A stretch of DNA of 64,000 bases from Candidatus Jordarchaeales archaeon (GCA_038889235.1 JAWAHN010000001.1:631459-695458); one strand, 5' to 3'; counted from the stretch's first letter, positions 17,076 through 63,671 are shown. Numbers and translations: made by a program. The notes: generated by a model from the letters alone, not told the origin.

Positions 17076-17222
17076 GCGGGGGTTGCCTAGTGGCTAGCTT
17101 AAAAGCCCGCAAAAGGCGCTGGCCTGGAGCCCGATGACTGAAAGCCAGTGACCCGAAAACTCGCGTGGCTAACACGCGTAGCCGGAGGGGTCGCGTGGGT
17201 TCGAATCCCACCCCCCGCGCCA
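17076..17222 (+). tRNA. tRNA-Ser (anticodon GGA or UGA), intron-containing, CCA encoded
   Basis: Acceptor GCGGGGG/CCCCCGC with discriminator G and CCA; T-arm GTGGG-TTCGAAT-CCCAC; anticodon stem CTGGC/GCCAG with a 13-nt insert in the loop; long variable arm with a further hairpin insert; D-region insert. Folded by eye. Confidence 0.6.
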
Positions 17223-17304: not shown

Positions 17305-17733
17305 TTATATGTCAAGAACGAAAACCAGGCGGACTTTGCCTTCTTTGACGTCGATCTCCATTTCGTGGTATGTCGCCGCTTTGACGTGTGTTTTTGACAC
17401 GTGTTTTTCGTGGTTAAATTTTTCTCCTTTGGCAGTTGCAACAAGTTTGTAGCCCCCGTCCTCCTTTGTTATCTTTTTTACTTTGAAATCTGAAAAGACA
17501 AGACGTTCAGAATCTGTTAGGTATATGAATTCTTCAAGCCAGTTATACAATAGGTTTTCCAAGTCGCTGCCCTCAACTTCTATCTTCTTTTCTACAACAG
17601 GGGTTACCTTAGAAATGTCCGTCATTAACTCGTAAAGTCCTCTTGCTGCCTCCTCGAAAGCCTCTTCAAGCGTTTTTCCCTCAGCCTCTATTTTAACATC
17701 TGCCGTGTGCTCGAGGAACCTGAATTGTCCCAT
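17305..17733 (-). CDS. Archease (RtcB tRNA ligase cofactor)
   Basis: Internal start MGQFRFLEHTADVKIEAEG, the archease N-terminal signature; GGAGGG precedes this ATG. Confidence 0.8.
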   Translation of the reverse strand: MGQFRFLEHTADVKIEAEGKTLEEAFEEAARGLYELMTDISKVTPVVEKKIEVEGSDLENLLYNWLEEFIYLTDSERLVFSDFKVKKITKEDGGYKLVATAKGEKFNHEKHVSKTHVKAATYHEMEIDVKEGKVRLVFVLDI

Positions 17734-17876
17734 GTTTTTCCCTCCACGCAAGAATTTTGACATAACTTAGCTCGTTATGAAGGAAAAACTTTCCCCCTAC
17801 GATGAGAGGAGGGGGCTAGGCATCAAGAAAAAGATCCCGGTGGTGTCCTTGATAATACTAAGTTTCAAAATAGGCG

Positions 17877-18407
17877 ATGGCGAGAAGACAATCCGAAAAA
17901 GTGTCGGAGGATTCCTGGTTGAAGTATGTTAAAGTGGTCTTTTTGGGGTTGCCCTCGGTTGGCAAGACGAGCATTATAACGCTTTTGAGTGAAAACAGAG
18001 TTGTTAGAAGCTACGATCCAACGATAGGCGTCGATTTTGGTTCAGTGTCCATCGGCGAGTGTGAGGTCTCATTGTGGGATCTTGCAGGACAAGAGAGGTT
18101 TCAATTTCTCTGGGATGACTTCATAAAGGGCGCGAAGATCATTTTCGCGGTTAGTGATTCAACGCCGAAGAATGTTTTGCAAACGAAAAAGATAATAGAT
18201 GAGATTAGAGGGAAAACTGATGCTCTTATAATAGGTATAGCTAACAAGCAAGACCTTCCGGGAGCTATGAAGCCAAGTCAAGTTGAGAGTATACTTAAGG
18301 TTCCAACTTACGGTATGGTCGCAATAGACCCTAGGAAGAGAGTTAAAATGTACAGTATTTTGAGGCAAGCTTTAGAGCAGACTGTTCTAGCTGTGGCGAG
18401 CAATTAG
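17877..18407 (+). CDS. Ras-superfamily small GTPase, Rab-like
   Basis: 176 aa; P-loop GLPSVGKTS, switch I TIGVDF, switch II WDLAGQERF, NKQD. Confidence 0.8.
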   Translation: MARRQSEKVSEDSWLKYVKVVFLGLPSVGKTSIITLLSENRVVRSYDPTIGVDFGSVSIGECEVSLWDLAGQERFQFLWDDFIKGAKIIFAVSDSTPKNVLQTKKIIDEIRGKTDALIIGIANKQDLPGAMKPSQVESILKVPTYGMVAIDPRKRVKMYSILRQALEQTVLAVASN

Positions 18408-25268: not shown

Positions 25269-28091
25269 TCAACTTTTTAGAGATTTACGGAGCAGTTCCA
25301 GCGCTCTTCTCATTGCTTCATCAATTTTTTCTACGAGTTCTCCCCCGCCCATGGCTATGTTTTCTTTGCCACCACCAGACCCACCTACAACCACTGATAT
25401 CTCTCTGACTATTGCAGATACATCTACCGGTACTTTGTTCCCTCTCATTCCGACAACTTCTACTTTCCCGTTCCTCCCTAAGAGAATTACAACCAAGTTC
25501 TCGTTCTTTTTAACTAACGAGTCGGCTATTTTTACGAGAGTTTCCCTATCAGTATCTACTCTTTCTACGATTGTAACATATTCCTCTAAAGGTATAACTT
25601 TATTGAGAAGCCTCTCAGCTTCCATCTTAGCCAAGTAGTTTTTGAGTTTTTCAATTTCCTTTCCTCGATCCTTCCACTCTTCAAAGAATCTTTTAGCAGC
25701 GTCTAAGACGTTTTCCTTTGGAACTTTGAAGACTGATGCAACGCTGTTAAGGAGCCTATCGATGTCTTGAATGTAGCGGATAGCAGCGTCGCCGGCCTTG
25801 AACTCAAACCTAACCACTCCGTCCTGTATTCTTTCAGTTTTCACTATTTTGATAATTCCAACTTCACCCGTGTAGTCTACATGTATTCCTCCGCAGGCTT
25901 CTACGTCCCATCCTTCTACGTCAACTATTCTAAGCTCTCCGCCGGGAACCGCGCCTCCTTGGTATATTGTGAAGCCAAACTTGTTCTCAGCTTCGTCTCT
26001 AGGCATGACATACTTGCTTACCCGGCGGTTCTCCATAACGATTTTATTGGCCAGCTCTTCTATTCTTGCAACTTCCTCGTTGGTTAAAGGTTTGTAGTGT
26101 GTTACGTCTAACCTTGCTTCATCAAATCTTTTCTCTGCACCAGCCTGCCAGACGTGGGGGCCTAGTACTCTTCTCGCCGCACCATTAAGTATGTGTGTTG
26201 CGGTGTGATGTCTCATGAGGGCAATTCTCCTTTCCCAGTCTATCTTCCCCTTAACCTCTTGTCCTACATGGAACTTAGAAACGTCGTTTACTTGATGGAG
26301 AATTACGTTTCCGACTTTTTCAACCTTGACCACGGTTTCGCCGTTAAGGCTGCCAACGTCGTACAGCTGGCCTCCCCCGGTAGGATAAAACAAGGTTCTG
26401 TCAAGGATTACGTATGGCCCAATTATGGCTATGACTCGCCCAGTGAACTCAGAGTCATATGGTCTGTCGTAGTAAAGTGGGTAAGTTGGAGGAATGTTTT
26501 CGTCTATCACAATACCCGGAGAAACAACGCCTCTATCTTTTTTCTCTTGTCTACCACCAAGTTCGAGGTAAAAGTTGCTTGGAACCTCGATCTTAATTCC
26601 CATTTCTTCGCCTATTTCTTGAACCATTTCGGGTGTGATCCCATTTGATTCATAGAGTTTAATGAGGGTTTCAACGTCCAGTGACTTCTTCTTTAGGAGA
26701 CGTTCAACCTGGCTGCGACCTTTAGCCAGCGACTGCAAGTATCTTTCCTTTTCGACAGCAAAAACGTCATCTATTATTTCAGCCGCAACCTTCAAGTGCG
26801 GGTAACTCCTGCTGAAGTACTCTATTTGCTTGTGGAAAAGCTCTGTGAAGTTTAATTCGAAACCATAAAGCTTATCCAAGCTAAGCGCCCTTCGAAGTAT
26901 CACGCGGAGGTTGTAACCTCCACCGACGTTTGAAGGAATGCCGCCATCAGCTACGGCGAAGACCAGGGTGCGCGTGTGGTCAGCTATAGCATAGAGGGCT
27001 TCTAGGGGGAGAAGCTGTCTCTTGAGCTCTTCCGTGGAGACGTCAAGCTTAGAAGCTATTTCGCGCACCACTTTTTCAAGATCTTGCATCTCGGTTGCAT
27101 CGAAAACTCCCGCAAGAGCGAAGTACCTCAGGATGAGGTCCTCGTCGACGGTCACCCCGGCCTCCTTTTTCAACCACTCCAAAATGGGGCCGAAGGCGGC
27201 CTCATATATTGTTGGGGTTCCTTGCATGAACCAACTAACCCGCTCGATCCCCCAACCTACATCTATCACTCTTATTTTAAGTTCTCTCCAGCTTCCATCC
27301 GGATTGAAAGCATACTGCATGAAGACATTATTTACTATTTCTAGGCCGCGGCCAAAGGCTTCTAGGGACGGGCCGAATGTTCCCCCGCCACTCCAAACAT
27401 CTTCCTTATAGGTTATTTCCTCCTTTTCCAGATTGAGGACTTTGGTTAAGAATTCGAAGTTGAGCTCCATGCATCTGTCCATCCAGTAACCCTCACCGTT
27501 ATAGTTGAAAGCATGTTGGCCTCCCATTATGAAGAGGGAGAGGTGTCTGCCCGTTCTACCGACGTTGTCTATGTCGCAAAAGCCTTTACCTCCAAACCTT
27601 ATGCAGGGCTGTGGGACAACAAGTGGATTTGCAGGAGGTCTCACGACGCCTTCAACTACGTACGGCTGGAAGTCGGCTATCGATGCTATGGTGAAAGCTA
27701 TGTCGTCCCTCCATCTAGCCACAACAGGATAAGCCTTTATTCTTTTATGGCCTCTTTCCTCGAAAAACCTACACCACTTTTCTATAGACTCGTGGAAATC
27801 CCATGCCATGCTAGTCTTCTTTCCCAGGAAGAGGTATCCTCCAACACACTTGGTGTCACCGCAGTTCTTTCGGTCAGGGTCCAGGGTCCAAAAGTAGTCG
27901 CCGCAAACTTCGCACCTATTTCTGACGAATCCTTCTCGCCTGAAAAGTTCTACTTCGTACTTTTCTTTACCGAAGTTTTTCCTAAGCTCCTCTTTAGAGA
28001 CAGTCAACGGGAACACCTCTTTGTGAGGGCGAGGGATGCTTTCTTGTTGCAAGTAAATTTTGAGGCGGGAAAGTCTAAAAACCTTCCTCAC
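25269..28091 (-). CDS. alaS: Alanyl-tRNA synthetase
   Basis: 940 aa; archaeal AlaRS N-terminus (CEVCGDYFWT), class II catalytic core, editing-domain HxxxH region, C-terminal DHH-like domain. Confidence 0.9.
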   Translation of the reverse strand: MRKVFRLSRLKIYLQQESIPRPHKEVFPLTVSKEELRKNFGKEKYEVELFRREGFVRNRCEVCGDYFWTLDPDRKNCGDTKCVGGYLFLGKKTSMAWDFHESIEKWCRFFEERGHKRIKAYPVVARWRDDIAFTIASIADFQPYVVEGVVRPPANPLVVPQPCIRFGGKGFCDIDNVGRTGRHLSLFIMGGQHAFNYNGEGYWMDRCMELNFEFLTKVLNLEKEEITYKEDVWSGGGTFGPSLEAFGRGLEIVNNVFMQYAFNPDGSWRELKIRVIDVGWGIERVSWFMQGTPTIYEAAFGPILEWLKKEAGVTVDEDLILRYFALAGVFDATEMQDLEKVVREIASKLDVSTEELKRQLLPLEALYAIADHTRTLVFAVADGGIPSNVGGGYNLRVILRRALSLDKLYGFELNFTELFHKQIEYFSRSYPHLKVAAEIIDDVFAVEKERYLQSLAKGRSQVERLLKKKSLDVETLIKLYESNGITPEMVQEIGEEMGIKIEVPSNFYLELGGRQEKKDRGVVSPGIVIDENIPPTYPLYYDRPYDSEFTGRVIAIIGPYVILDRTLFYPTGGGQLYDVGSLNGETVVKVEKVGNVILHQVNDVSKFHVGQEVKGKIDWERRIALMRHHTATHILNGAARRVLGPHVWQAGAEKRFDEARLDVTHYKPLTNEEVARIEELANKIVMENRRVSKYVMPRDEAENKFGFTIYQGGAVPGGELRIVDVEGWDVEACGGIHVDYTGEVGIIKIVKTERIQDGVVRFEFKAGDAAIRYIQDIDRLLNSVASVFKVPKENVLDAAKRFFEEWKDRGKEIEKLKNYLAKMEAERLLNKVIPLEEYVTIVERVDTDRETLVKIADSLVKKNENLVVILLGRNGKVEVVGMRGNKVPVDVSAIVREISVVVGGSGGGKENIAMGGGELVEKIDEAMRRALELLRKSLKS

Positions 28092-29099: not shown

Positions 29100-29232
29100 G
29101 GTCCCGTCGCCTAGCCAGGAGAGGAAACTGAAAGGGCGCCGACCGGGTGGGCGTAAGCCTTCTAAGCCGGAATTCCCGGGTTCAAGTGTTTCCGCCTTTG
29201 GGGCGGAATTGAAAGTCCCGGCGGGACCGCCA
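29100..29232 (+). tRNA. Intron-containing tRNA (possibly tRNA-Arg UCU), CCA encoded
   Basis: Acceptor GGTCCCG/CGGGACC with discriminator G and CCA; T-arm CCGGG-TTCAAGT...CCCGG with insert; one fold gives anticodon stem CCGG[11-nt insert]C / GCCGG and loop CTTCTAA; D-arm ambiguous. Confidence 0.45.
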
Positions 29233-30754: not shown

Positions 30755-30870
30755 TGGAGCCCCGGGCGGGTTTTTCTACAGCGACTCGAACCCGCGGCCT
30801 GCGGCTTACGAGGCCGCCGCTCTACCGGTTGCCCGCCAATTTCAAAAAGACGCTCTGAGCTACCGGGGCT
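30755..30870 (-). tRNA. tRNA-Thr (anticodon CGU), intron-containing, CCA encoded
   Basis: Minus strand: acceptor GCCCCGG/CCGGGGC, discriminator U, CCA; D-stem GCTC/GAGC with insert in D-loop; anticodon arm GCGGC-CTCGTAA-GCCGC; T-stem GCGGG/CCCGC with about 13-nt insert after the TTCGAGT loop. Confidence 0.65.
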
Positions 30871-31109: not shown

Positions 31110-32471
31110 ATGGTTTTGGATGCTTTGGGTGAGGGGCTGAGGAACGCCATTAGTAAGCTTCTTCGTTCGACTGTTGCGGATAGGGAGGCTGTTAGAGAGC
31201 TTGTAAGGGAAATGCAGCGTGTTTTACTTTCCTCCGACGTCAATGTTGAGCTTGTGCTCCGCCTCTCAGAAAATATTGAGAGGAGGGCGCTCGAGGAGGA
31301 GCTACCCTTAGGTATTAGTAGAAGAGAACATATTGTTAAGATCGTTTACGATGAGTTGGTGAAGATTTTAGGTGGTAGACCGCGTGGTTTGAATATTAAG
31401 CCTGGACGATTAAATGTTATAATGCTGGTTGGGATACAGGGTTCCGGGAAAACAACCACGGCAGCTAAGCTAGCGAAGTATTTAGTTAAACGGGGATTCA
31501 AGGTTGGGCTCGTTTGTGCAGACACATTCCGCTTAGGGGCCTATGAGCAACTCAGCCAGCTGGCTGAGTCTATTGGTGTACCTTTCTTTGGGGACGTTAA
31601 TAGCAAGAGCAGCGTTGATGTCGCCAGAAGGGGGATTGAGTTCTTCCGGGAAAAGGGGGTTGACGTAGTAATAGTTGATACCGCTGGAAGGCATAAGAAC
31701 GAAGCAGACCTTATGGAGGAAATGAAGGAAATCGCTAATGCCATTAAGCCTACTGAAATAATACTTGTTGTTGATGGAACTTTAGGTCAGCAAGCGATGG
31801 TTCAAGCTAAGGCGTTTAAAGAAGCCACAGATATAGGCTCAATAATTGTAACGAAACTTGATGGCACTGCTAGGGGTGGAGGGGCGCTTTCAGCGGTAGC
31901 TGCAACGGGTGCGCCTATAAAATTTATAGGGATAGGAGAAAAACTGGACGACATAGAAGCCTTTGACCCTGTTGGCTTTGTAGGGCGGCTTCTGGGAATA
32001 AGCGATTTGCGTGCGCTCCTTGAAAAAGTAAGAGAAGCGGAAATTAAGCCCGAAAAAGAGGAAGTAGTGGCTTTACTCACAGGTCGCTTCACATTGAAGG
32101 ACTTCTTCAGGTGGATGGAGCAGGCTAGGAAAATGGGACCTGTGGGGAGGATCTTTGAGCTAATGGGCTTATCTGGCATACCAAAAGAGCTTAGAGAGGT
32201 CGCTGAGACAAAACTTGAAAGGTGGAAAGTTATAATGCAGTCTATGACAAAAGAAGAACTGGAGAACCCTAAGATACTTAACAGGTCGAGGGTGAACAGA
32301 ATTGCAAGAGGGTCTGGGACTACGCCTAAAGAGGTCAAGGAACTAATAGACCAATATTTTGCGGCGAAAAAAATGGTTAAGGTACTAGGCAAGAGGAGAA
32401 TGCGTGGAAAGGGATTGCCACTTCACGGCTTTTCCTTAGACCAAATGGGGAAGCTAGTGGGAAAAACATGA
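31110..32471 (+). CDS. srp54: Signal recognition particle protein SRP54
   Basis: 453 aa; N domain, G domain with GIQGSGKTT P-loop and DTAGR, C-terminal M domain. Confidence 0.9.
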   Translation: MVLDALGEGLRNAISKLLRSTVADREAVRELVREMQRVLLSSDVNVELVLRLSENIERRALEEELPLGISRREHIVKIVYDELVKILGGRPRGLNIKPGRLNVIMLVGIQGSGKTTTAAKLAKYLVKRGFKVGLVCADTFRLGAYEQLSQLAESIGVPFFGDVNSKSSVDVARRGIEFFREKGVDVVIVDTAGRHKNEADLMEEMKEIANAIKPTEIILVVDGTLGQQAMVQAKAFKEATDIGSIIVTKLDGTARGGGALSAVAATGAPIKFIGIGEKLDDIEAFDPVGFVGRLLGISDLRALLEKVREAEIKPEKEEVVALLTGRFTLKDFFRWMEQARKMGPVGRIFELMGLSGIPKELREVAETKLERWKVIMQSMTKEELENPKILNRSRVNRIARGSGTTPKEVKELIDQYFAAKKMVKVLGKRRMRGKGLPLHGFSLDQMGKLVGKT

Positions 32472-33034
32472 GACATTTCTATATAGTATTGAATGCTATC
32501 CCTGTGATTTCAAAAAGGGAAGTCGATCACGGGCAGTTGAGCGACGAAGTGGCTGAACTTTGTTCCTGTATTAGAGCGGCGCTTTTCCTCTCTCACGACA
32601 TAAGACGTGATGTTAGAGTCCACCTCATACTACTCGGAGAGAGAAAAGACGTGGTAATTTCCGGTGAAAGTGTCAGGTACCTCTCTCCTGACGAGAGGTC
32701 GCTTTGCATGCTTTTAATTAAGTTCAGTGAGAGGAAAACTAGGAAACCTTGGAGAGGCGTTTGCGTAAAAGAATTCGCTTCCCTCCGAGAGATATTCCCC
32801 TCAGACGGTGTGCTAATAGTTCCTAATGATGAAAGAGACGAACTTCAGCAAGTAGAAAATTTGAAAGAGGTCATGTTAATTGTTCCATTGAATCCATTAG
32901 GAAAGTTAGAAAGAGAGTTGGATAATGTAAAAAAGCTGCATGTTAAAGTTTGCGGTAAACTTGACCCAAGTAGTCTTATAACTGTTATAAACAACCGAAT
33001 CGATATAACGGAGGAGCAACAATGTTCCCTCTAA
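32468..33034 (+). CDS. trmY: tRNA (pseudouridine54-N1)-methyltransferase TrmY (DUF358, SPOUT family)
   Basis: 188 aa; LSHDIRRDV motif characteristic of archaeal TrmY; coupled to the downstream Pus10 gene. Confidence 0.7.
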   Translation: MRHFYIVLNAIPVISKREVDHGQLSDEVAELCSCIRAALFLSHDIRRDVRVHLILLGERKDVVISGESVRYLSPDERSLCMLLIKFSERKTRKPWRGVCVKEFASLREIFPSDGVLIVPNDERDELQQVENLKEVMLIVPLNPLGKLERELDNVKKLHVKVCGKLDPSSLITVINNRIDITEEQQCSL

Positions 33035-34392
33035 ATAAAGCCCTTGAAATGCTCGAAAGAACCCCGCTTTGCAACAGCTGCTTAGGTAGACAGTTCGCCC
33101 TTTTAGGAATGGGGTCAAACAACCCGAACAGAGGGTATGCACTTAAAATGGTTCTAACCATGGCCGCAGCACATATGCTCAGAGATAAACCAGAAGAGGG
33201 GACGAGAATACTCAGGATACTTGCAACGAACGGCATGTTTCAGCCAGCTGTTGAGACCCTAGAGAAAGAGGGTATGAAAGTTGAGAAAGATGAGAAAAAA
33301 TGCTACATCTGCGGTGGACTTATGATGAAGAAAAAAGAGATAGCAGAGAAAGTCGTAGAAGTGCTGAAAAACTACGATTACAGAAACTTCCTCATCGGAT
33401 GCCACGTCCCCTCGTCACTGACAGAAAAAGATGATGAGCTTAAGGCGACACACCAAATAGACACCGGCGAAACGATAAAGGCGGAATTTAATAGAGAAGT
33501 TGGAAAGATAGTTTCAGCAATGACGGGAAAACCTGTTGATTTCAAGAACCCCGATGTGGTCGCCATAGTAAACCTCGAAAGTCTAGACGTCACAGTAAAT
33601 TCTAACCCACTGTACATAGGAGGACGTTACCTAAAACACGTCAGAGGCATACCGCAAACCAAGTGGCCCTGCAGAGTCTGCAAGGGTAAAGGATGCCCGA
33701 GATGCGGGGGAACCGGGAAGATGTACAGCGAGTCTGTTGAAGAGTTAATCCTCCCACCTATACTTGAGGAAACAAGAGGGGACGAGGGGAAATTCCATGG
33801 AGCAGGAAGGGAAGATATAGATGCAAGAATGCTTGGAACAGGTAGACCGTTCATAGTTGAAATTAAGAACCCGAAGAGGCGCAACATAGACTTAAAGCTC
33901 CTAGAAGAGAAGATAAACGCTTATGCCCAAGGGAAAGTGGAAGTGCATTCCCTGCAATTTGCAGTAAAGGAAAACGTGCGACAACTTAAAGCATTATCAC
34001 AATTTGCCCCTAAGACTTACAGGGCGCTTGTTAAACTAGACAGAGAAGTAACACCACAGGAGCTAGAAGAATTAGAGAAGCGACTTGCAGGACAAACAAT
34101 AAGGCAAAAGACACCTAGGAGGGTCGCTCATAGAAGAGCAATAAAGACCAGGCTCAAAAAAGTTTACCAAGTTCAGGCTAAACAAATAGACCCACAAACC
34201 ATAGAGTTAACAGTAACATGCCAGGGAGGATTGTACGTAAAAGAACTTGTGACCGGCGACAAAAGAAGAACCAGGCCAAGCGTGGCAGAAATCCTCCAAA
34301 CGAAAGCAGAGTGCGTGGAATTAGACGTTATAGACGTTGGTACCGCGATTCCACAAGAAACAGTACAGCAAAACGAGAAAAAAGCCACGTAG
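33022..34392 (+). CDS. pus10: tRNA pseudouridine(54/55) synthase Pus10
   Basis: 456 aa; N-terminal zinc ribbon CNSCLGRQF, THUMP-like region, second zinc motif CRVCKGKGCPRCGG, catalytic domain. Confidence 0.8.
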   Translation: MFPLNKALEMLERTPLCNSCLGRQFALLGMGSNNPNRGYALKMVLTMAAAHMLRDKPEEGTRILRILATNGMFQPAVETLEKEGMKVEKDEKKCYICGGLMMKKKEIAEKVVEVLKNYDYRNFLIGCHVPSSLTEKDDELKATHQIDTGETIKAEFNREVGKIVSAMTGKPVDFKNPDVVAIVNLESLDVTVNSNPLYIGGRYLKHVRGIPQTKWPCRVCKGKGCPRCGGTGKMYSESVEELILPPILEETRGDEGKFHGAGREDIDARMLGTGRPFIVEIKNPKRRNIDLKLLEEKINAYAQGKVEVHSLQFAVKENVRQLKALSQFAPKTYRALVKLDREVTPQELEELEKRLAGQTIRQKTPRRVAHRRAIKTRLKKVYQVQAKQIDPQTIELTVTCQGGLYVKELVTGDKRRTRPSVAEILQTKAECVELDVIDVGTAIPQETVQQNEKKAT

Positions 34393-34443
34393 AAAGAGGG
34401 CAAAAAATTTATCTAAGACTCATCTACTTTCTTTCATGATGGT

Positions 34444-34554
34444 GGGCCCGTAGCTCAGCTAGGTAGAGCGGCAGAAAATGAACGCCGAAGCTCATAACCT
34501 GTTGGTCCAGGGTTCGAATGTGATAAAACGCCGAAAATCCCTGCGGGCCCACCA
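34444..34554 (+). tRNA. tRNA with CAU anticodon (elongator Met or Ile2), intron-containing, CCA encoded
   Basis: Acceptor GGGCCCG/CGGGCCC, D-arm GCTC-AGCTAGGTA-GAGC, loop CTCATAA, anticodon stem split by about 15-nt insert at 30/31, T-arm CAGGG-TTCGAAT with 19-nt insert before CCCTG. Confidence 0.6.
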
Positions 34555-34624
34555 CCATTCAAAATGTTAAAGCAAGCAATCCTAAAAGCTTTTAAATCCG
34601 TTTTCTATTCTATTTCGTGCTAGT

Positions 34625-34755
34625 GCCTCGGTGGTGTAGCCCGGCCAAATTTAATGATGCTGAAAGCATAAGGGGCTTAGGAGTAAATCCGCCCAATCGA
34701 CCCCTTGACCCGGGTGGTTAAGAGCCAGGGAATTCAAATCCCGGCCGAGGCACCA
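34625..34755 (+). tRNA. tRNA-Glu (anticodon UUC most likely), three introns of about 18 nt, CCA encoded
   Basis: Acceptor GCCTCGG/CCGAGGC, disc A, CCA; Glu-type D region (GTGTAGCCCGGCCAA); inserts in D-loop, anticodon loop and between T-stem and T-loop; anticodon depends on exact splice sites (UUC if intron is at 34/35; UAG or UAC also formally possible). Confidence 0.55.
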
Positions 34756-34882
34756 ATCACTTCTAATTTTTGACAAAGCTAAAGTTATTACAAGAAACTA
34801 AACGAGATTCCCTCTTTGTTAGGAGCCGCGAGAAAAAGTCCAAAATGTTCTGGAAATGGGCTTTAGGGAAAATATGATGTAA

Positions 34883-35020
34883 TGGCGCCGGGGGCAGGAT
34901 TTCCGTGGGAGGACCCCATCTCGAACTTCCGCCCTTTTTAGGGGCTGCGACCACCGGGTTAACAGCCCGGCGCTTTAGGCTACTTTAAGCGGTGATCTAC
35001 CTGGTCTGAGCTACCCCGGC
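34883..35020 (-). tRNA. tRNA-Asn (anticodon GUU), intron-containing, CCA encoded
   Basis: Minus strand: acceptor GCCGGGG/CCCCGGC, disc G, CCA; anticodon arm CCGGG-CTGTTAA-CCCGG; D-loop insert; T-arm region carries about 38 nt of insert and could not be folded cleanly. Confidence 0.5.
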
Positions 35021-35246
35021 TCATGTTTAGTATTATGCTTCGTGTTCTTAAATGTTTCTAGTGCCGCTTTTCTATACCTTGTTTATGAAGGTTGCACGCT
35101 TCTTTGCGGCTTTTAGAAAACGGCGGAAATGTTATAGTGGAGGTTTTGGATGTTGTGGTGCTTGCTATGCTGTACATTTAAAGGAAAACTATAAAAGTTG
35201 CATTGTTCAAGGTTTTTAGTAGCTTGAAGAAGGAGGTTTTTGTCTT

Positions 35247-45477: not shown

Positions 45478-45882
45478 TTGTTAAAATTGTCTGTCGAGCA
45501 AATAATTTCCGTCATAAATGAGCTTCTTTCAACAAACGAAAACATAACTGCAGCCGCAGTTATCACAAATGACGGGCGTATAATATACCAGACAAACAAC
45601 TGGGACGTTAGTGTTGACGCGCCGAGTCTAATTGCTTCTTGGAGGGAAAAGGCGCCAGCCATATCGGTTCAGGGTATAAAGTACTCTGTTCTTCAAACAA
45701 CTGAGGAGAGACTCGTTGCGACAAACGTTAGCGGACTCGGACATATAATACTTGCAACAATACAGAGACGCGGCTTTCTAATGGTTTACGTGACACCTCA
45801 AGGGGATGCTGGTGGGAGCTACGTGGACGTCAGTCGGGCAGCAATGAAGCTCGCTCCAATTTTGCAAGCGATGGGTTACTGA
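45478..45882 (+). CDS. Roadblock/LC7-domain protein (MglB-like)
   Basis: 134 aa; alpha-beta pattern (AAAVITNDGRIIYQ...KYSVLQTTEERLVATNVSGLGHIILAT) characteristic of Roadblock/LC7. Confidence 0.65.
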   Translation: MLKLSVEQIISVINELLSTNENITAAAVITNDGRIIYQTNNWDVSVDAPSLIASWREKAPAISVQGIKYSVLQTTEERLVATNVSGLGHIILATIQRRGFLMVYVTPQGDAGGSYVDVSRAAMKLAPILQAMGY

Positions 45883-45913
45883 ATACTTTAAATCAAAGAT
45901 CCTCCCCCTCTTT

Positions 45914-46603
45914 TTAGTAAATCCTCCTGACGAGACGTACTTCTTCGCTCTCTAAGTCATATTCTACGAGGTTGGCTTTGGCCAGGTCGTAAATGCTTTT
46001 CAGTATGATTGCTGGCTGGAAACCAGCGGCCTCAGTTATTTCTTTCCGTTTCATGATGTTTTTATCTCCATGCAACAAGTATAGTACTTTGGCGTGAGGC
46101 TGTCCACCGAAAACTTCCTCGAGAAGAGTGATATATATTGAAAGGAGGTGCCTTACGTCCTCGATTTCCTCTTTTTCCTTAGTAATTTCTCGGTACATCT
46201 TTGACAGCCTTGATAGCTGTTCCTTTATGTAGTTTAGCTCTTCTTCGAGCTTACGTTTTTCGTTCAACACACTGGAAAGCTCTTCGTCTTTTGCAGCTAA
46301 CTTTTCCTTAGTCTCTTTCAGAGAGCGTTCCAAGCTCATTATTTGTTCCTTTAGAGAAACTATTTCTCTCTGAGAAGATTCAAGGGTGGACTTTAACTTT
46401 TCAGTTTCTTCTTCCTTGCTCTTCAGTAAAAAGATGAGTTCATTCATTTTTTCATCTTTTTCCTTAATCTCCCTTTCTTTGGCTGCAAGGGCATTTGCCA
46501 TTCCCGTGACTTCATCGACGATAAGTTCCATTCTATTATAGAGGTCTTTTATCGCCGCACAGATACTACTTACTTTTTCCACAGCGTTAGTGTTCACATT
46601 CAC
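45914..46603 (-). CDS. Coiled-coil protein with C-terminal winged-helix-like domain
   Basis: 229 aa; long heptad-rich E/K/L segment followed by KVLYLLHGDKNIMKRKEITEAAGFQPAIILKSIYDLAKANLVEY. Confidence 0.5.
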   Translation of the reverse strand: MNVNTNAVEKVSSICAAIKDLYNRMELIVDEVTGMANALAAKEREIKEKDEKMNELIFLLKSKEEETEKLKSTLESSQREIVSLKEQIMSLERSLKETKEKLAAKDEELSSVLNEKRKLEEELNYIKEQLSRLSKMYREITKEKEEIEDVRHLLSIYITLLEEVFGGQPHAKVLYLLHGDKNIMKRKEITEAAGFQPAIILKSIYDLAKANLVEYDLESEEVRLVRRIY

Positions 46604-46694
46604 TCCTCCCCGCTAGCGGATCACCACAAAAACTTGGAAGAAATTCAACTATTATTTCAACTCGTAATTTTCAGCTTTCGATAATTTTTAAAGG

Positions 46695-47636
46695 GTGTCT
46701 GTTATTTATAAGGTTGATCAGAGAGAATTCATTCAGGCGGTTGGAGGCTCAATGGAGGAGGACCTAAGGAATGTTATAGAAAGGGTGATCGGAGAAAGTG
46801 TTCAAAGAAGCATAGAACCATTTATACGCGCTCTTTTGAAGAGCATAAAGATAATCAGAGATGAAGTCGCTTCGATAGGAGTGGAGCTGGAGACGCGATC
46901 CAAGGACCTTTTGAGCCAATTAAACGGATTATCGAACCTGCTTCGGACAATTTACGAGCATGTGGAAAGAATAGAGAAGACGCAGGGTGAAGCGGAGCAA
47001 CGGCTACTTATAACTCCCCCCTCTGAGCAAAGAAATGTAGAGAGTCTTGTAGAAAGCAAAGTTAGAAGCTTGATTGAACCTCTAGGTAAAACTCTTCAGA
47101 AGATCGTGGATCAACAAATTACGCTGATAAATACCATCGAGCAAATTGTCGGAAAAATGGAGAGCATCGAAAGGAGCATGTTAGAACTTAAGACGAGTGC
47201 ACCTAAAATCCCAATTCAGCTGGGTTCAGAGGTGGATGAGGAAGAGAGGGCAGAAACAACTTCAGACGTTTTTAAAAGTGAAGTTTTCTCTAAATTAGAA
47301 GGTGCAGTTAAGACGCTTCTGGAAAAAACCGAGGAAGCAGAAAAGGTCAAAGAGACGGAGGAAGCAGAAGGGGGACCAGAATTTGAAGAACATTTAACAG
47401 AAACCGAAAAGCTAGAGCTTCAATCCGCTTCAAGAGAAGCCGCTGGTAGCGAGGAATTAACTATTGACAAATTACAGGAGAGGGTGGCAGAAATAGATCG
47501 GGAAATAACTGACTTAACTTTTGATAGAATGAGAGGGCTTCTAAGTGAAGAAGAATATCAAGAGAAAAAGGAGACATTAATAAAGGAAAAGGAGATTTTG
47601 AAAAAGAAAATCGAGGAGCTGACTCTTAAGATGTAA
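46695..47636 (+). CDS. Coiled-coil protein, function unknown
   Basis: 313 aa; extended predicted coiled-coil and acidic segments; first gene of a three-gene co-directional unit. Confidence 0.5.
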   Translation: MSVIYKVDQREFIQAVGGSMEEDLRNVIERVIGESVQRSIEPFIRALLKSIKIIRDEVASIGVELETRSKDLLSQLNGLSNLLRTIYEHVERIEKTQGEAEQRLLITPPSEQRNVESLVESKVRSLIEPLGKTLQKIVDQQITLINTIEQIVGKMESIERSMLELKTSAPKIPIQLGSEVDEEERAETTSDVFKSEVFSKLEGAVKTLLEKTEEAEKVKETEEAEGGPEFEEHLTETEKLELQSASREAAGSEELTIDKLQERVAEIDREITDLTFDRMRGLLSEEEYQEKKETLIKEKEILKKKIEELTLKM

Positions 47637-47679
47637 AGGAAGAGAAACCTAAGATTTACGGGTGGAGGAATGCTGAAGT

Positions 47680-47985
47680 TTGGAAAAGACTGTGGATATA
47701 TGGGAATATTACCCAACCTATTCCGTCGATAAGAGCGGTAAAAAAGTGTTGATTATACGGGCTCTTACTTCCTTAAGCGATCTCAGCAAATTCGATATTC
47801 AAAATTATGAACAAATCAAGAAGTTGTGGTTTTCGGTTCTTTTAAGCATCCCTCTTCTAAAGAAGAAAAATTTTGACGACTCCTTACTCGAGGTGAAGAT
47901 TGAGGGGGAAACTGTTGAAGTTCGTGTAACAATCCCTCAAGATTATATTGAAGATGGTTCGACTCTTGGGGGAGAAAAGAGTTGA
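47680..47985 (+). CDS. Small hypothetical protein
   Basis: 101 aa; sits between two genes of the same unit and overlaps the next start by 4 bp. Confidence 0.4.
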   Translation: MEKTVDIWEYYPTYSVDKSGKKVLIIRALTSLSDLSKFDIQNYEQIKKLWFSVLLSIPLLKKKNFDDSLLEVKIEGETVEVRVTIPQDYIEDGSTLGGEKS

Positions 47986-48602
47986 TCCACGCTATCTACA
48001 TTATAGATGGAAGAAGTGGGGTACACTTCCTTTCCCAGAGATATGGAGAAATAGAACTGGATGAAGCGCTAATTGCTGGATTTTTAACAGCTATCAAGCA
48101 TTTTTCATGTGAATTGAAAAAGAGTAAAAGAGAGGGGGAGACTGATGCAGTTCAAGAAATAGAAATGAAAACGTACAAAATTGTTATTCATGCTTCTGAG
48201 GAAAACATCCTTGTAGCTGCAATAACCGACTGGGAGGATTCCACGCAGCTTGTTAGGAAAGCTTTGACGGAAGTTGCTTCAAGCTTTTCAGGAAGGTATA
48301 GATCAATTTTGAATAATTGGAACGGAGATTCATCATTATTTTCAGACTTTGTTCCCGAACTCGACAGGATTTTAATGGAGGGGCGTATTGGGGAAGCGCT
48401 TAAAAAACCGAAACTTAAAGGGAAACTTATGAAGAGTATGGTTAGAATGGGATTTATAAGTGAGGACGCGTTTAGGATAAGCGAGCTATGTGACGGAAGA
48501 CACACAAAAGAAGCGATTGCCGACAAGCTTAAACTCCCCTTAGAAAAAGTTATTGAAGCAATAGGGGAGCTTGAGAAAAAGAACCTCCTCGAGTGGGTTT
48601 AA
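47982..48602 (+). CDS. Longin/Roadblock-like domain protein with C-terminal winged helix
   Basis: 206 aa; N-terminal MIHAIYIIDGRSGVHFLSQ...KIVIHASEENILVAAITD (SNARE-like/longin-type pattern), C-terminal HTH-like RISELCDGRHTKEAIADKLKLPLEKVIEAIGELEKKNLL. Confidence 0.5.
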   Translation: MIHAIYIIDGRSGVHFLSQRYGEIELDEALIAGFLTAIKHFSCELKKSKREGETDAVQEIEMKTYKIVIHASEENILVAAITDWEDSTQLVRKALTEVASSFSGRYRSILNNWNGDSSLFSDFVPELDRILMEGRIGEALKKPKLKGKLMKSMVRMGFISEDAFRISELCDGRHTKEAIADKLKLPLEKVIEAIGELEKKNLLEWV

Positions 48603-48631
48603 AGGTTTCCTGAACTGAAAGATGACTATTT

Positions 48632-49489
48632 TTACTCCGCTTCGTATTGTACTCCGGAAGTTATCAAGATTAACGACAAAACAATTATAACGGGTGAAAT
48701 GAAGATAACTATTTCTCCGAGAAGGGATTTTATGATAGCGGCTTGCATAGTTCGACCCACATAGTAACACATGAAGCCGACCCCTAACAAGGAAGCCCTC
48801 CTTCTTATCACACCCGCGCTATTCAATGCCACGTAAAAGAATAGTAATGGGATAAACAGCGAGTAAATAGACGAGAGAACGTAGTTTATGGCAAAGTATA
48901 CTGCTCCACTTGGTTGGTAGACTATAGCAAGCCTTTGAGGGAACCAGGGACTAAATGGGTCGAAGCCAAGCCAGAAAAGTACTCCTTGAGTTTCTGAGCC
49001 GGGCTGGGGTACTAGGAAGCGGACTTCATCTATAACGTAATTGAAAAGAAGCTCTCCCGGTAAGAGAAGTAAAGCAAGTCCGGCAAGCAACGGGGGAATA
49101 TGAAGTGTACGTCTCAGCCACTTATTTTCAAGCCACACGTAAGCGATGCCCAGGGATATGAATGAAAGACTGAGCCATTCCCAAAAAGATGCCAGCCGCC
49201 AATCCCAAGTGTTACATATGAACACAGCTTCAACAAATGGAGTATATGCACTGGACAAGACGGGAGCCAAAAAAATTACTGCAGGTTTGTCGTAGAAATC
49301 GTATAAAAGAAAGAAAACTCTACCTACTGCAAGCGTCAGGAAGAATAACGAGAGCGATAAATTGAAAAAGTTTCGGTTCTTTCTCCACTTGAAGAGAAAA
49401 AGGTACAAGAAAAGGAGGACATAATAACCCACTATAGTAAACCAAAGTCCTATGGCGAAAGTATATGGAACATATTGTGACGGGATCAA
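48632..49489 (-). CDS. Polytopic integral membrane protein, function unknown
   Basis: 285 aa; several hydrophobic helices, aromatic-rich. Confidence 0.55.
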   Translation of the reverse strand: MIPSQYVPYTFAIGLWFTIVGYYVLLFLYLFLFKWRKNRNFFNLSLSLFFLTLAVGRVFFLLYDFYDKPAVIFLAPVLSSAYTPFVEAVFICNTWDWRLASFWEWLSLSFISLGIAYVWLENKWLRRTLHIPPLLAGLALLLLPGELLFNYVIDEVRFLVPQPGSETQGVLFWLGFDPFSPWFPQRLAIVYQPSGAVYFAINYVLSSIYSLFIPLLFFYVALNSAGVIRRRASLLGVGFMCYYVGRTMQAAIIKSLLGEIVIFISPVIIVLSLILITSGVQYEAE

Positions 49490-50439: not shown

Positions 50440-51723
50440 CTAGAAAATTCTGGCCTCCAAATCCATTACTACCTCTTGGAAGGCTCGGTATAACACGTCT
50501 AAAAAAGAGGCCAATACTCTTCCTATCTTGTCTTTTAGTGGAGCCTTTTCGGGATAACCTAAGTCGTAAAGTGGTTTGTTAAGAAGTGCTTCCAATCCTA
50601 CAGGTATAGATGCTTTCGCCATAAGCGATAAGTTAGAAAGGACTCTCACACCGTGCTTTTCTAGGTATTTTTCTGGTTCGAGAAGGCTCTCTCTTTTGAG
50701 GTCATAAATCCGTTTTATCGTTGAATCAAGGAGAAGCTGTAGCTTTCGGAGCTCATCTGTAATATCGCTACTTAGGATGCTGCCATGTTCACTTAAGAAG
50801 CGATCAATTTCGGAAGAAATAGAGAGGATAGGACGCTGCCAAAGTATGTTTAAAAGCTTGTCAAACACCACCATATTTTTCCTGCTGCCAGTTTTTTCTT
50901 TGCTGATCCTCGCTTTCAGATCTCTAATCTTCTTATCTAGGGAAATTATCATACTTGAAATACTTTCTAGGTCCATTTTAAACCCGCTTTTAAGTTCCTC
51001 GTGTTCTATGAGATAGAACCTGTGTATTTCTTGTTCAAGAATGAAACCCATTTTCTCCGAGAAGTTTCTCACTCTGTGCAACAAAAAATCTAGGAATATG
51101 TTTAAATAAAGCTTCCTTAGAAGACCCGCTAACCTCTCCCATATCTCCTTAAACATTACTATCCTTTCCTTTTTCAAGAGGATCAAAGCGTGATCTCCGG
51201 GTTTTAAGTAAAAACAATAGTCTTTGAGCGCCTCTTTAAGACTGTTTTTTTCCCCCAACTTGTTTATGAAGATGGATGGATAACCGTGAGCAGCCGTGTT
51301 GACGTAGTAGTAAAGCCGTTTACCTTCATTCGTGGGGTAGCTAAAAACTATAATGCGCTCCAAATCTCCTGGATGGTGGGCTTTTCCGGGAGCTATAGTG
51401 AAACCCTTACTGTACGACAGCATTACGTAGATTGAATACCTTTCTTCCCCCTCAGTTAGTCCTGGAAACCTTAACAGGAAACCTAATTTTTCTAATACGC
51501 TTCTTTTATCTTTAGCCCATTCAGATGCTAATAAGTAGAAGCTACGCTTCTCTACATCTCCAACTATAACTCTGAAGAGCCCTAAAGTATCTCGTTTCTC
51601 GACATATTCATGTAATTTGTCAAAAAGCTTGCTTAACTCTCTCATGCTTCTTTTAAGCACAAATTCACGACTTTTCTCTTCATATATCGCAACTCTTTTC
51701 GGGAGGTAAACTTCGACTTCCAA
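50440..51723 (-). CDS. Hypothetical protein (427 aa)
   Basis: Long uninterrupted ORF; no family recognised. Confidence 0.5.
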   Translation of the reverse strand: MEVEVYLPKRVAIYEEKSREFVLKRSMRELSKLFDKLHEYVEKRDTLGLFRVIVGDVEKRSFYLLASEWAKDKRSVLEKLGFLLRFPGLTEGEERYSIYVMLSYSKGFTIAPGKAHHPGDLERIIVFSYPTNEGKRLYYYVNTAAHGYPSIFINKLGEKNSLKEALKDYCFYLKPGDHALILLKKERIVMFKEIWERLAGLLRKLYLNIFLDFLLHRVRNFSEKMGFILEQEIHRFYLIEHEELKSGFKMDLESISSMIISLDKKIRDLKARISKEKTGSRKNMVVFDKLLNILWQRPILSISSEIDRFLSEHGSILSSDITDELRKLQLLLDSTIKRIYDLKRESLLEPEKYLEKHGVRVLSNLSLMAKASIPVGLEALLNKPLYDLGYPEKAPLKDKIGRVLASFLDVLYRAFQEVVMDLEARIF

Positions 51724-52718: not shown

Positions 52719-53297
52719 TTGACAGGGACTAAGATATGTAGCGTTTTGTTTGAAACACCAGGCCCTGCGAACACGGATGAAACATTGAAAATAGCTAAAG
52801 AATTTGCGGATAACAATCAAGTGAAGGATATAGTTATTGCTTCTACTACAGGGAATACTGCTCTCAAGGCGCTTAGATTGTTTTCTCCGGACAAGTTTAA
52901 CTTGGTGGTGGTTACTCATAGTTACGGTTTTGTAAAACCAGGAGAGCAAGAGTTTGATAGTGAAGTTAGAGCGGAGCTTGAAAAGAAAGGTGTTAAGGTT
53001 TTGACGTGCGTGCACGCTCTTTCTGGGGTTGAAAGAGCATTTAGGAACAAACTTGGCGTCTGGATGCCGATCGACCTAATTGCTAGAACACTTAGATCCA
53101 TACTGGGCGACGGATTTAAGGTTTGCGTGGAGATTGCTCTCATGGCTGCCGATGCAGGACTTATTCCAATAGATAGGGACGTAATCGCAATAGGAGGGAC
53201 AGGGCGGGGGGCGGATACTGCAGTGGTTCTTAGGCCTTCAAACACGTCCAACTTCTTAGATTTACGTGTCAAGGCCATTCTTTGTAAGCCCATCTGA
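52719..53297 (+). CDS. Conserved hypothetical protein (alpha/beta fold)
   Basis: 192 aa; no confident family assignment. Confidence 0.45.
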   Translation: MTGTKICSVLFETPGPANTDETLKIAKEFADNNQVKDIVIASTTGNTALKALRLFSPDKFNLVVVTHSYGFVKPGEQEFDSEVRAELEKKGVKVLTCVHALSGVERAFRNKLGVWMPIDLIARTLRSILGDGFKVCVEIALMAADAGLIPIDRDVIAIGGTGRGADTAVVLRPSNTSNFLDLRVKAILCKPI

Positions 53298-54113
53298 TAA
53301 ATACTTTTTTAGCGGTCTTTTGCACGAGGGACACTTATCTTTTTGTTTAAAGTAATCGTTTAAATGCTTTTCACATGCCTTATTAAAACAAAAGGGACAT
53401 GTGAAATGCTTAGAGTCTGGCGGCAGTTTATCTCCGCACACCATGCATTTTTCTTCTTCAACCTCACTGCGCAATGCCCTTTCTATCCATTCAAACTCTT
53501 CTGGTGAGCCGATTTCGTACACGCCGTTCTCTATTAACATGTCTCTAACGTAAATTCTGTACTCTTGAGGTGCGTCTTCAGAAACCAAGAGAAGTTTCTT
53601 TGCTTCTTCAAGAAGAGAGATCCCATTCAATCTTGACGAAACCATTTTCCACACATATCTTAAGATCAATGGATTCCTTACGAGGGAACCATAGAGAAAA
53701 TTCGCGCACTCGTAGCTTCGCCCCTCGTTAAAATAGTAGTCTACGGCTTCCTTAAAGAGGCCAACTCTGAGCAGTTGTAGAACCGGGTGACCGACCCCTT
53801 CTTTTTCGTATTTGTCTAAGAGTTTTTCGGCCTGCCTCGTTCTAATGACAGAGTAGAGGGCGCAGGATAACGTGCATAAAAGGAAAAATATGCTTAATGT
53901 TGGAAAAACTGTAGGGTATTGTGTTGGGGCCACGTTTAAACTAATTAGCAACATATTGTAAGCCAACCACGCGAAAAAAGATTCGTAAGTATTACGAGTG
54001 AAGTATAGATAGATATCTATCGCACAATAAGCTGCAATGCTAAAAGACAACAAGAGGAGAATTGAAAGTCTGCGCTTCAACTTGGACTTAGCGAGTTCCG
54101 TCAAAACAATCAC
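53262..54113 (-). CDS. Membrane protein with C-terminal zinc-ribbon domain
   Basis: 283 aa; N-terminal transmembrane helices, C-terminal CMVCGDKLPPDSKHFTCPFCFNKACEKH...CPSCKRP. Confidence 0.5.
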   Translation of the reverse strand: MIVLTELAKSKLKRRLSILLLLSFSIAAYCAIDIYLYFTRNTYESFFAWLAYNMLLISLNVAPTQYPTVFPTLSIFFLLCTLSCALYSVIRTRQAEKLLDKYEKEGVGHPVLQLLRVGLFKEAVDYYFNEGRSYECANFLYGSLVRNPLILRYVWKMVSSRLNGISLLEEAKKLLLVSEDAPQEYRIYVRDMLIENGVYEIGSPEEFEWIERALRSEVEEEKCMVCGDKLPPDSKHFTCPFCFNKACEKHLNDYFKQKDKCPSCKRPLKKYLSDGLTKNGLDT

Positions 54114-56404: not shown

Positions 56405-57436
56405 ATGGACGTAAGTAGGTACTTGTCTCTAAAAAGGGTTACCCTGTTTTTCAATGGAGGAGCCTTAATGGAGTACGAGGGGCAAATTCCAGTTAAGGAC
56501 GAGGATACATTGTACATGATGGCTGTTGACTTGAACATTGCTGAACAAGTTTTTTCAACTTTGAATGTAAGCGACCTCGACGGAGGAGCTGTAACTGAAA
56601 TAGTGTACCAGCTCCCTGCTGAGTTGTCTTGCAGTTATGACGTTAAATTTGACAACTTCATGCGGAGCTTACTCCCCAAACTCGTAGGGAGAACCATCAG
56701 CTTAGGAGTAAAAAGTGGAGAGAACATTTCAGGGATCCTTCTGGGCTTTGACGAAACAAAAAATGGCGGCAACGATGAAGTTTTCCTCGATGTTCTCTCA
56801 TCGGACAAGCTTTACAGAGTCAACATGGCGTCAGTAGAACATATTTCTTTGGGAAAAAACTGCTCTCTTGAGTTAAAAAACCTTGCTAAAGGGGAATTGA
56901 AGGCTTACGTCGGTTGGAGAATAGACCCGGGGACTGTAGTAAAAGAAAAACATTTGGTTAATGTAAAACATTTTCAGTCGCTGGGTGAGAAATGGAGACC
57001 CTTTTATCATCTTTATGTTTCAGATGAGATGTGGGTTTTGATAGTGTGGTGCGAAATCACAAACCCAACGTCAAAGGATTGGAAAGACGTGTCGATTACA
57101 CTTACAACCGGAGCAATGCTACTGCTAGGATCTTGTGAACTGCGAAGTGATGAAGTTGCCGAGTACAATATCACTGGACCAGTTACTATTCCCAAGTTTT
57201 CGAGAGTTCTCATCCCTGTCTCTAAATTTGAAGTTAAAGGCGAAGTACAGTTGCAAACAGGTGATTCAGAGAAAAATGTGGTGAAGGTGAGTATAATAAA
57301 CGACAGCGGTAAAGTGTGGCTTCCAGGAAAAATTATAGTGTGGAGAGAGGGACGGCTCCTTGGAATTGGTGAATTACAGTTTGTCAAGAAAGGCGGAGTT
57401 GCGGTGGTTGAGGTAAGCGTGAAGACAAGTAATTGA
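56405..57436 (+). CDS. Hypothetical beta-rich protein (343 aa)
   Basis: Long ORF upstream of the giant coiled-coil operon; no family recognised. Confidence 0.5.
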   Translation: MDVSRYLSLKRVTLFFNGGALMEYEGQIPVKDEDTLYMMAVDLNIAEQVFSTLNVSDLDGGAVTEIVYQLPAELSCSYDVKFDNFMRSLLPKLVGRTISLGVKSGENISGILLGFDETKNGGNDEVFLDVLSSDKLYRVNMASVEHISLGKNCSLELKNLAKGELKAYVGWRIDPGTVVKEKHLVNVKHFQSLGEKWRPFYHLYVSDEMWVLIVWCEITNPTSKDWKDVSITLTTGAMLLLGSCELRSDEVAEYNITGPVTIPKFSRVLIPVSKFEVKGEVQLQTGDSEKNVVKVSIINDSGKVWLPGKIIVWREGRLLGIGELQFVKKGGVAVVEVSVKTSN

Positions 57437-57570
57437 AAACATTTAAAAAAATAAAAAGAATTTTGTATTTTTAACATTTTAAAAATTAAGAAAAGTTTAT
57501 TTTTCTACAGATTTTAACATTTCTTGCCCGGTTAACTAGGATTGTTTTGCTGTTAATGGAGTGAGCAGTA
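57437..57570. promoter_or_regulatory. AT-rich intergenic region with three AACATTT copies, upstream of the 57571-62829 operon
   Basis: AACATTT at 57438, 57473 and 57516; exact 11-mer TTTTAACATTT at 57469-57479 and 57512-57522. Confidence 0.3.
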
Positions 57571-63580: not shown

Positions 63581-63671
63581 TGGTGGGCGGGCCAGGATTT
63601 GAACCTGGGACCTCCACGGTGTCAACTTCGCCCTTTCTGTGTGGCGTCATAACCAGCTAGACTACCCGCCC
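63581..63671 (-). tRNA. tRNA-Val (anticodon GAC), one intron, CCA encoded
   Basis: Minus strand: acceptor GGGCGGG/CCCGCCC, disc A, CCA; T-arm CCAGG-TTCAAAT-CCTGG; anticodon stem CCAC[14-nt insert]G / CGTGG with loop TTGACAC. Confidence 0.65.

Follow-up and report, generated by a model that had tools for sequence, protein, structure and literature searches.

Three GC-rich islands at positions 34444-35020 of a 64,000-nt stretch of archaeal DNA (GCA_038889235.1, JAWAHN010000001.1:631459-695458; hereafter the window) have ends that form a perfect 7-bp acceptor stem with a discriminator base and CCA. They raise the question of whether they are working tRNA genes broken up by several introns apiece, and if so, which anticodons their products carry. 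The original prediction, read from the sequence alone, described a tRNA(CAU), a tRNA-Glu-like gene and a convergent tRNA-Asn, with inserts in the D-loop, the anticodon stem or loop, and the T-arm. Standard tools do not recognise these loci: ARAGORN, run on the unspliced DNA with and without its intron mode, found none of the three cluster genes, and Rfam at its gathering threshold reported no match in the cluster and a sole tRNA in the window (63584-63671). In E-value mode, Rfam matched the cluster only once, in part and at 17 bits, within the third island (Asn). The loci are thus invisible to default tools, and we checked the claim manually.

Eight short inserts interrupt three canonical tRNAs

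We found that removing eight inserts of 15-22 nt in silico (two, three and three per gene) converts the islands into three canonical cloverleaves. The spliced products, of 77, 78 and 78 nt, fold as standard cloverleaves in ARAGORN, which calls them tRNA-Met(cat), Glu(ttc) and Asn(gtt). The corresponding genes are tRNA(CAU) at 34444-34554 on the plus strand (111 nt), tRNA-Glu(UUC) at 34625-34755 on the plus strand (131 nt), and tRNA-Asn(GUU) at 34883-35020 on the minus strand (138 nt), convergent with the Glu gene; all three lengths include the encoded CCA. The coordinates, strands and lengths given in the original prediction are correct to the base, and so is its placement of the inserts in the D-loop, anticodon stem or loop, and T-arm.

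Candidate promoters lie upstream of all three genes. For tRNA(CAU), an A-rich stretch and TATA-like box, AAAAAATTTATCTA, is found ~29-36 nt upstream (34402-34415, plus strand), and the motif recurs at a comparable distance in two related genomes introduced below, Ca. Jordarchaeum sp. LHC_1308 and the MAG S9B3_HD70. The putative TATA-like box of tRNA-Glu, TTTTAAAT, lies 28-35 nt upstream (34590-34597, plus strand) in a sequence of the form AAAG(C/T)TTTTAAA that is kept in the window and both relatives, and that of tRNA-Asn, ATTTAAGA, lies 26-33 nt upstream (35046-35053, minus strand), where AATTTAAGAA or CATTTAAGAA is kept in the same three genomes. Oligo-T runs follow the cluster tRNA genes. 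We consider it very probable, from sequence and comparative data, that the cluster comprises three functional, separately transcribed tRNA genes with eight short archaeal-type introns at the junctions described below.

Splice motifs at the predicted junctions

We modelled the splice motif as a 4-bp helix (H) with a 3-nt bulge on each strand and a cut after the second bulge nucleotide. In this bulge-helix-bulge (BHB) register, the central helix forms four of four pairs in seven of the eight cluster introns and three of four in the eighth. The splice sites fall in the 3-nt bulges around the helix or in the relaxed hBH or HBh' forms of the motif, and removal of the inserts leaves a canonical cloverleaf with a sensible anticodon in each gene.

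The first predicted intron of tRNA(CAU) is 15 nt long and lies at 30/31 in the anticodon stem (34475-34489, plus strand; H CGGC/GCCG). It has a relaxed hBH/loop-type motif with 3' bulge AA^G (caret, cut site) and without an inner helix. The second, of 19 nt at 59/60 in the T-loop (34519-34537, plus strand; H TTCG/CGAA), forms a full strict hBHBh' with bulges AA^T and AA^T, a 5-bp h and a 3-bp h'. tRNA-Glu would lose 17 nt from the D-loop at 20b/21 (34648-34664, plus strand; H CGGC/GCTG, h' of 3 bp), 18 nt from inside the anticodon at 34/35 (34679-34696, plus strand; H GGGC/GCCC, h' of 3 bp), and 18 nt from the T-stem/T-loop border at 53/54 (34715-34732, plus strand), where H (CCCG/AGGG) has three of four pairs and the flanking helices h and h' are 4 bp each.

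The predicted introns of tRNA-Asn, all on the minus strand, are 22 nt at 22/23 in the D-arm (34975-34996; H AGGT/GCCT), 18 nt at 52/53 in the T-stem (34927-34944; H TCGC/GCGG, inner helix CCCT/AGGG), and 20 nt at 59/60 in the T-loop (34900-34919; H TTCG/CGGA, h' of 5 bp). Once the 59/60 intron is removed, the mature T-loop reads UUCGAGU. An alternative Asn D-arm, suggested by the 17-bit Rfam partial match, was ruled out by the conservation of a GCTC-AGACCAGGTA-GAGC D-arm across orthologues.

A relaxed BHB scan gives dozens of chance candidates per gene, so we did not take a BHB alone as evidence. Combining BHB-like removal with ARAGORN under relaxed criteria is likewise permissive, with many alternative solutions, and the intron assignment therefore rests mainly on comparative data. 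We also used a stricter search that required a 7-bp acceptor stem and a U8 anchor, allowed up to three BHB-flanked removals, applied a T-arm prefilter, and passed the products to ARAGORN. On the window's intergenic DNA this search recovered the same eight cluster introns, and it returned zero positive loci when run on that DNA after dinucleotide shuffling (ten shuffles) and on 7 kb of coding sequence.

We weighed whether the inserts could instead be self-splicing group I or group II introns, or remnants of mobile elements, which would not be spliced by an endonuclease. No point in support of such an origin was found. At 15-22 nt the inserts are far below ribozyme size and could not hold the core of hundreds of nucleotides that defines group I/II introns, Rfam detects no intron family anywhere in the window, terminal repeats and target duplications are absent, and the junctions fit the BHB register. 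We regard this origin as the least probable of the alternatives considered here, with almost no chance of being correct. Split or circularly permuted tRNA genes are also ruled out, since the exons of each gene are collinear, at one locus and on one strand.

Splicing is predicted to assemble the Glu anticodon

The original prediction left two readings of the Glu-like gene, UUC if the anticodon-loop intron lies at 34/35 and UAG if it lies at 37/38. Placing the intron at 34/35 gives a central helix, GGGC/GCCC, with all four pairs, together with 3-nt bulges (TT^A, AA^T) and an inner helix of 3 bp; RNAfold returned the same structure unprompted. The same placement gives UUC in the window, LHC_1308 and S9B3_HD70, despite introns of 18, 26 and 21 nt, respectively. 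The intron position thus gives the anticodon UUC and identifies the gene as tRNA-Glu(UUC); splicing is predicted to assemble the anticodon itself, with U34 upstream of the junction and U35 and C36 downstream.

The alternative reading has the gene spliced at the canonical 37/38 position, for a type I tRNA whose anticodon is UAG, or in alternative registers, for more than one anticodon. It has in its favour that removing 18 nt at 37/38 also restores a 7-nt loop. Checked by hand, however, this placement forms only two of the four central pairs and no BHB, against four of four pairs, correctly formed bulges and an inner helix of 3 bp at 34/35. It also reads inconsistently across the orthologues, as UAG in the window, UAU in LHC_1308 and UAG in S9B3_HD70, where 34/35 gives UUC in all three. 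The variable region of 4 nt and the D-loop AGCCCGGCCAA also make the body of the gene Glu-like. We consider splicing at 37/38 or in mixed registers highly improbable and drop the UAG reading in favour of tRNA-Glu(UUC).

Related genomes conserve exons and splice helices while introns diverge

We compared the cluster with three other genomes: GCA_038894575.1 (L001), Ca. Jordarchaeum sp. LHC_1308 (L003), and the MAG S9B3_HD70 (L004). The first has an identical Pus10 protein, encoded beside the cluster, and a near-identical tRNA cluster. The flanking Pus10 shares 85% identity with that of LHC_1308, 82% with that of a Jordarchaeales MAG and 75% with that of S9B3_HD70, and the closest relatives are the Jordarchaeales MAGs L003 and L005. 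Pus10 identity and lineage place the host in the class Freyarchaeia/Jordarchaeia, and by sequence comparison it is a Jordarchaeales (Asgard) archaeon.

LHC_1308 and S9B3_HD70 both keep Pus10, CAU, Glu and convergent Asn in this order. The Glu exons are 100% identical in both, and the CAU and Asn exons differ from the window at a few positions only. The orthologous inserts vary in both length (13-36 nt) and sequence. At the register fixed by the exons, the 4-bp helix is fully paired in 23 of 25 introns across the window and the two relatives; the helices with three of four central pairs are those of the window's Glu 53/54 intron and the S9B3_HD70 Asn 22/23 intron. Across these introns the intron strand of the helix varies while its pairing is kept, as in CGAA, CGAG and CGGA against TTCG, GCGG, GTGA and GCGA against TCGC, GCCT and ACCT against AGGT, and AGGG and CGGG against CCCG.

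This pattern can be followed position by position. The CAU 59/60 position is occupied in LHC_1308 (17 nt, H3' CGAG) and S9B3_HD70 (25 nt, H3' CGGA). In the Glu gene, the 20b/21 position is used in LHC_1308 (15 nt) and S9B3_HD70 (13 nt) with H3' GCTG in all three genomes, the 34/35 orthologous introns of 26 and 21 nt share the same position and the same H, and the 53/54 junction of S9B3_HD70 forms CCCG/CGGG with four of four pairs. In the Asn gene, LHC_1308 has a 13-nt intron at 22/23 (H3' ACCT), and the 52/53 introns have H3' GTGA in LHC_1308 (30 nt) and GCGA in S9B3_HD70 (36 nt), all of which pair with TCGC. The Asn 59/60 position is likewise used in LHC_1308 (21 nt, CGAA) and S9B3_HD70 (13 nt, CGGA). 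S9B3_HD70 has canonical 37/38 introns in its CAU and Asn genes.

The 15-nt intron that the original prediction placed between positions 30 and 31 of the CAU tRNA is absent from LHC_1308 and S9B3_HD70, and both genomes read exactly as the predicted splice product, GCAGGCTCATAACCTGT. A metagenome scan with the CAU 5' exon as query identified 29 CAU orthologues, 14 of them intron-less with exactly the predicted junction. With the Rfam tRNA model, intron-less orthologues reach 70-74 bits; the unspliced window loci fall below its gathering threshold. Other metagenomic orthologues have a single intron position, 37/38 or 59/60, or combine introns at 30/31, 38/39 and 59/60. In the three-intron (L090-type) orthologues, the 30/31 helix pairs exon CGAC with intron GTCG, compared with CGGC/GCCG in the window, a two-sided compensatory change. 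The inserts thus behave as BHB introns do, with exons kept, intron sequence and length free, and intron-less alleles in relatives. We regard the comparative evidence as decisive for the predicted intron assignment; in-silico splicing and orthologue comparison agree in placing multiple introns at non-canonical positions in all three loci, as the original prediction proposed.

These data also bear on the possibility that we are dealing with tRNA pseudogenes in decay, which have gathered insertions and lost their function. The failure of standard tools to recognise them would fit decay, as would a base change at Asn position 38 in the near-identical assembly. Decay is hard to reconcile, however, with Glu exons that are identical and CAU and Asn exons that are nearly so in genomes where Pus10 is only 75-85% identical and the inserts have diverged freely. 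The splice motif is kept in every insert, the promoter-like boxes are conserved, and the same architecture is seen in all eight tRNA genes of the window. We judge pseudogenes a very poor explanation, with only a slight chance of being right, and continue to read the loci as functional genes.

Two smaller differences between the genomes concern the tRNA genes themselves. The Asn gene of GCA_038894575.1 (L001 4721-4858) has C rather than A at position 38, giving the loop CTGTTAC, which may be either a strain polymorphism or an assembly error. The CAU genes of LHC_1308 and S9B3_HD70 have no encoded CCA (they read ATCA); the window's eight tRNA genes all encode the 3' CCA.

Identity of the CAU tRNA

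The anticodon CAU can belong to an initiator, an elongator tRNA-Met or an AUA-decoding tRNA-Ile2. The acceptor stem of the window's tRNA(CAU) opens with G1-C72, and its anticodon stem includes an A29-U41 pair; set against the features of archaeal initiator tRNAs, both argue that the tRNA is not the initiator. We predict that it is elongator-type, either Met or the AUA-decoding Ile2. Its acceptor stem GGGCCCG with A73, together with its D-arm, presumably resembles archaeal tRNA-Ile, and it may for this reason be Ile2. Among the loci retrieved, tRNAs were too few to supply Ile(GAU) and Met genes for comparison, and the CAU tRNA sequence had no match in a literature search.

The two CAU introns (34475-34489 and 34519-34537) have in common a 9-nt block, AACGCCGAA, which occupies different structural registers in the two. 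The block has a pair-wise P of 0.002 and a family-wise P of 0.05 over all intron pairs, and given the latter value we keep it as a lead only. The 30/31 intron is absent from the two closest syntenic relatives and so may be a recent gain; a 30/31 intron is also found in an unrelated, non-syntenic lineage. It is possible that the 30/31 intron was gained by intragenic copying from the older 59/60 intron of the CAU gene.

Proposed processing and the splicing enzymes

Each intron can pair with adjacent exon sequence in a BHB or a relaxed version of it, with the splice sites in the 3-nt bulges. In the pathway that we propose by analogy with established archaeal tRNA biology, the endonuclease EndA would cut each bulge between its second and third nucleotides, and the ligase RtcB, helped by Archease, would join the exons. 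The motifs of the Asn 52/53 and 59/60 introns share G53 and U54 and probably cannot form together, so these two introns are probably removed in sequence. tRNAscan-SE 2.0 likewise assumes sequential processing for closely spaced introns (PMC8450103). In Asgard archaea, EndA is reportedly of the broad-specificity (alpha-beta)2 type, in which the L1 loop confers relaxed specificity (PMC5829648).

No EndA or RtcB gene was identified in the 64-kb window by Pfam scans, which covered 58 of its 62 called ORFs, and the enzymes are therefore inferred from other Asgard genomes. Annotations of SRP54, Pus10, ZPR1 and an RPA-like protein, which lie outside the 58 scanned ORFs, were made via GCA_038894575.1. 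A gene for the RtcB cofactor Archease is present at 17305-17763 on the minus strand, adjoining a Ser-like multi-intron tRNA gene.

Immediately upstream of the cluster, 31110-34392 on the plus strand encodes SRP54, a TrmY-like RNA methyltransferase (PF04013), and Pus10, the T-loop pseudouridine 54/55 synthase. The order SRP54, TrmY-like, Pus10 and tRNA cluster is kept in GCA_038894575.1, LHC_1308 and S9B3_HD70.

Other tRNA genes in the window

We found eight tRNA genes in the window, all with introns and seven with two or more, for a total of at least 20 introns (~2.5 per gene). Canonical 37/38 introns account for none of the 17 that could be placed, and four of the genes have an intron at 59/60.

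A Ser-like type II tRNA at 17076-17222 on the plus strand has G73, an encoded CCA, a long variable arm and at least three inserts, in the D-loop, anticodon loop and variable arm. ARAGORN miscalls this gene as Ala(cgc) with a 60-nt intron, and relaxed BHB enumeration of its anticodon gives GGA, UGA and many others. tRNA-Arg(UCU) at 29100-29232 on the plus strand, missed by default tools, has three introns: 11 nt in the D-loop (29122-29132; three of four central pairs), 15 nt at 29/30 (29142-29156), and 29 nt at 59/60 (29187-29215). tRNA-Thr(CGU) at 30755-30869 on the minus strand, with U73 and an encoded CCA, carries a D-loop intron of 26 nt at 15/16 and a T-loop intron of 13 nt at 59/60. The 812 nt in which it lies, upstream of SRP54, hold no ORF of at least 90 aa, and the gene was missed by default tools and by our automated stricter search.

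The remaining two genes, both on the minus strand, are in tandem. tRNA-Val(GAC) at 63581-63671 has one 14-nt intron at 30/31, and tRNA-Ala(GGC) at 63690-63828, which has G3:U70, carries introns of 22 nt at 33/34, 18 nt at 53/54 and 22 nt at 58/59. The anticodon-loop hairpin of the Ala gene allows several nested BHB registers, and an Ala anticodon results only from the 22-nt removal.

Relation to known intron-rich tRNA sets

The window's tRNA genes resemble the intron-rich sets of Freyarchaeia/Jordarchaeia and Atabeyarchaeia, in which nearly all genes bear introns. In complete Freyarchaeia and Atabeyarchaeia genomes, introns are present in 92-95% of tRNA genes, more than half of the genes contain several, and many of the introns are non-canonical (Valentin-Alvarado et al, 2024, Nat Commun, PMC11291895). 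The same study treats Freyarchaeia and Jordarchaeia as the same group, and its table lists up to 3-4 introns per gene, with Freyarchaeia values of four for Ile2-CAT, four for Arg-TCT and two for Asn-GTT (PMC11291895). The window's host belongs to this archaeal class and shares its intron-rich tRNA genes; it differs from the Freyarchaeia genomes of that study in genus and habitat. In Atabeyarchaeia, the Asn and Glu(TTC) genes are adjacent, as they are in the window cluster (PMC11291895). Because multi-intron tRNA genes are already published for the same class, we view the cluster as a further, well-resolved instance, and it reveals no new mechanism.

Intron density is higher in the window (~2.5 per gene) than in the genomes of PMC11291895, for which our own division of the 228 introns by the genes listed gives ~1.8. 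The Freyarchaeia tRNA table of that study (Supplementary Data 4) has no Glu, His, Phe or Cys entries (PMC11291895); for Glu, the gap could plausibly be explained by the three-intron architecture that is conserved in Glu(UUC). A broader interpretation would join three elements: a lineage whose introns are almost all non-canonical and denser than any yet seen, ongoing intron turnover, and the Glu architecture as explanation of the table gap. Taken as a whole, we find this interpretation rather doubtful.

Outside the Asgard archaea, Thermoproteales have BHB, hBH or HBh' introns at 20/21, 22/23, 29/30, 30/31, 53/54 and 59/60 (PMC4090602, PMC4033280, PMC8450103). They likewise have up to three introns per gene and an (alpha-beta)2 EndA (Sugahara et al, 2007/2008; Fujishima et al, 2010; reviewed in PMC4090602, PMC4033280), and intron similarity in this group suggests transposition (PMC4090602, PMC4033280). 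Thermoproteales differ from the window's host in superphylum (TACK rather than Asgard), and they average 0.84 introns per gene with many canonical 37/38 introns (PMC8450103), compared with none of 17 in the window. In the red alga Cyanidioschyzon merolae, short non-canonical introns with BHB-like junctions occur, sometimes several per gene, but in a eukaryotic nuclear genome in which some tRNA genes are also permuted (PMC3728597).

Default tRNA finders miss the cluster genes, so that annotations of Jordarchaeales genomes will seem short of Glu, Asn and a CAU species. Such a seeming loss of essential tRNAs could be misread as genome incompleteness or as recoding. The series of CAU genes with zero, one, two and three introns and covarying splice helices provides clean comparative material on intron gain and loss, and the cluster should be useful for gauging the substrate range of Asgard EndA.

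Other genes in the window

The window also encodes MetRS (7050-8741), AlaRS (25269-28091) and QueC (4855-5544). Six consecutive ORFs at 45478-49489 and the ORFs at 50440-51723, 53262-54113 and 56405-58455 have no Pfam match at E <= 1e-5; this run could be made up of lineage-specific genes or be an integrated element. At 58452-62378 on the plus strand is a gene for a 1308-aa protein with a TrmB-type HTH at its N-terminus and a long region that is apolipoprotein-like and probably a coiled coil. A small Arf/Ras-family GTPase, of a kind typical of Asgard genomes, is encoded at 17877-18407 on the plus strand.
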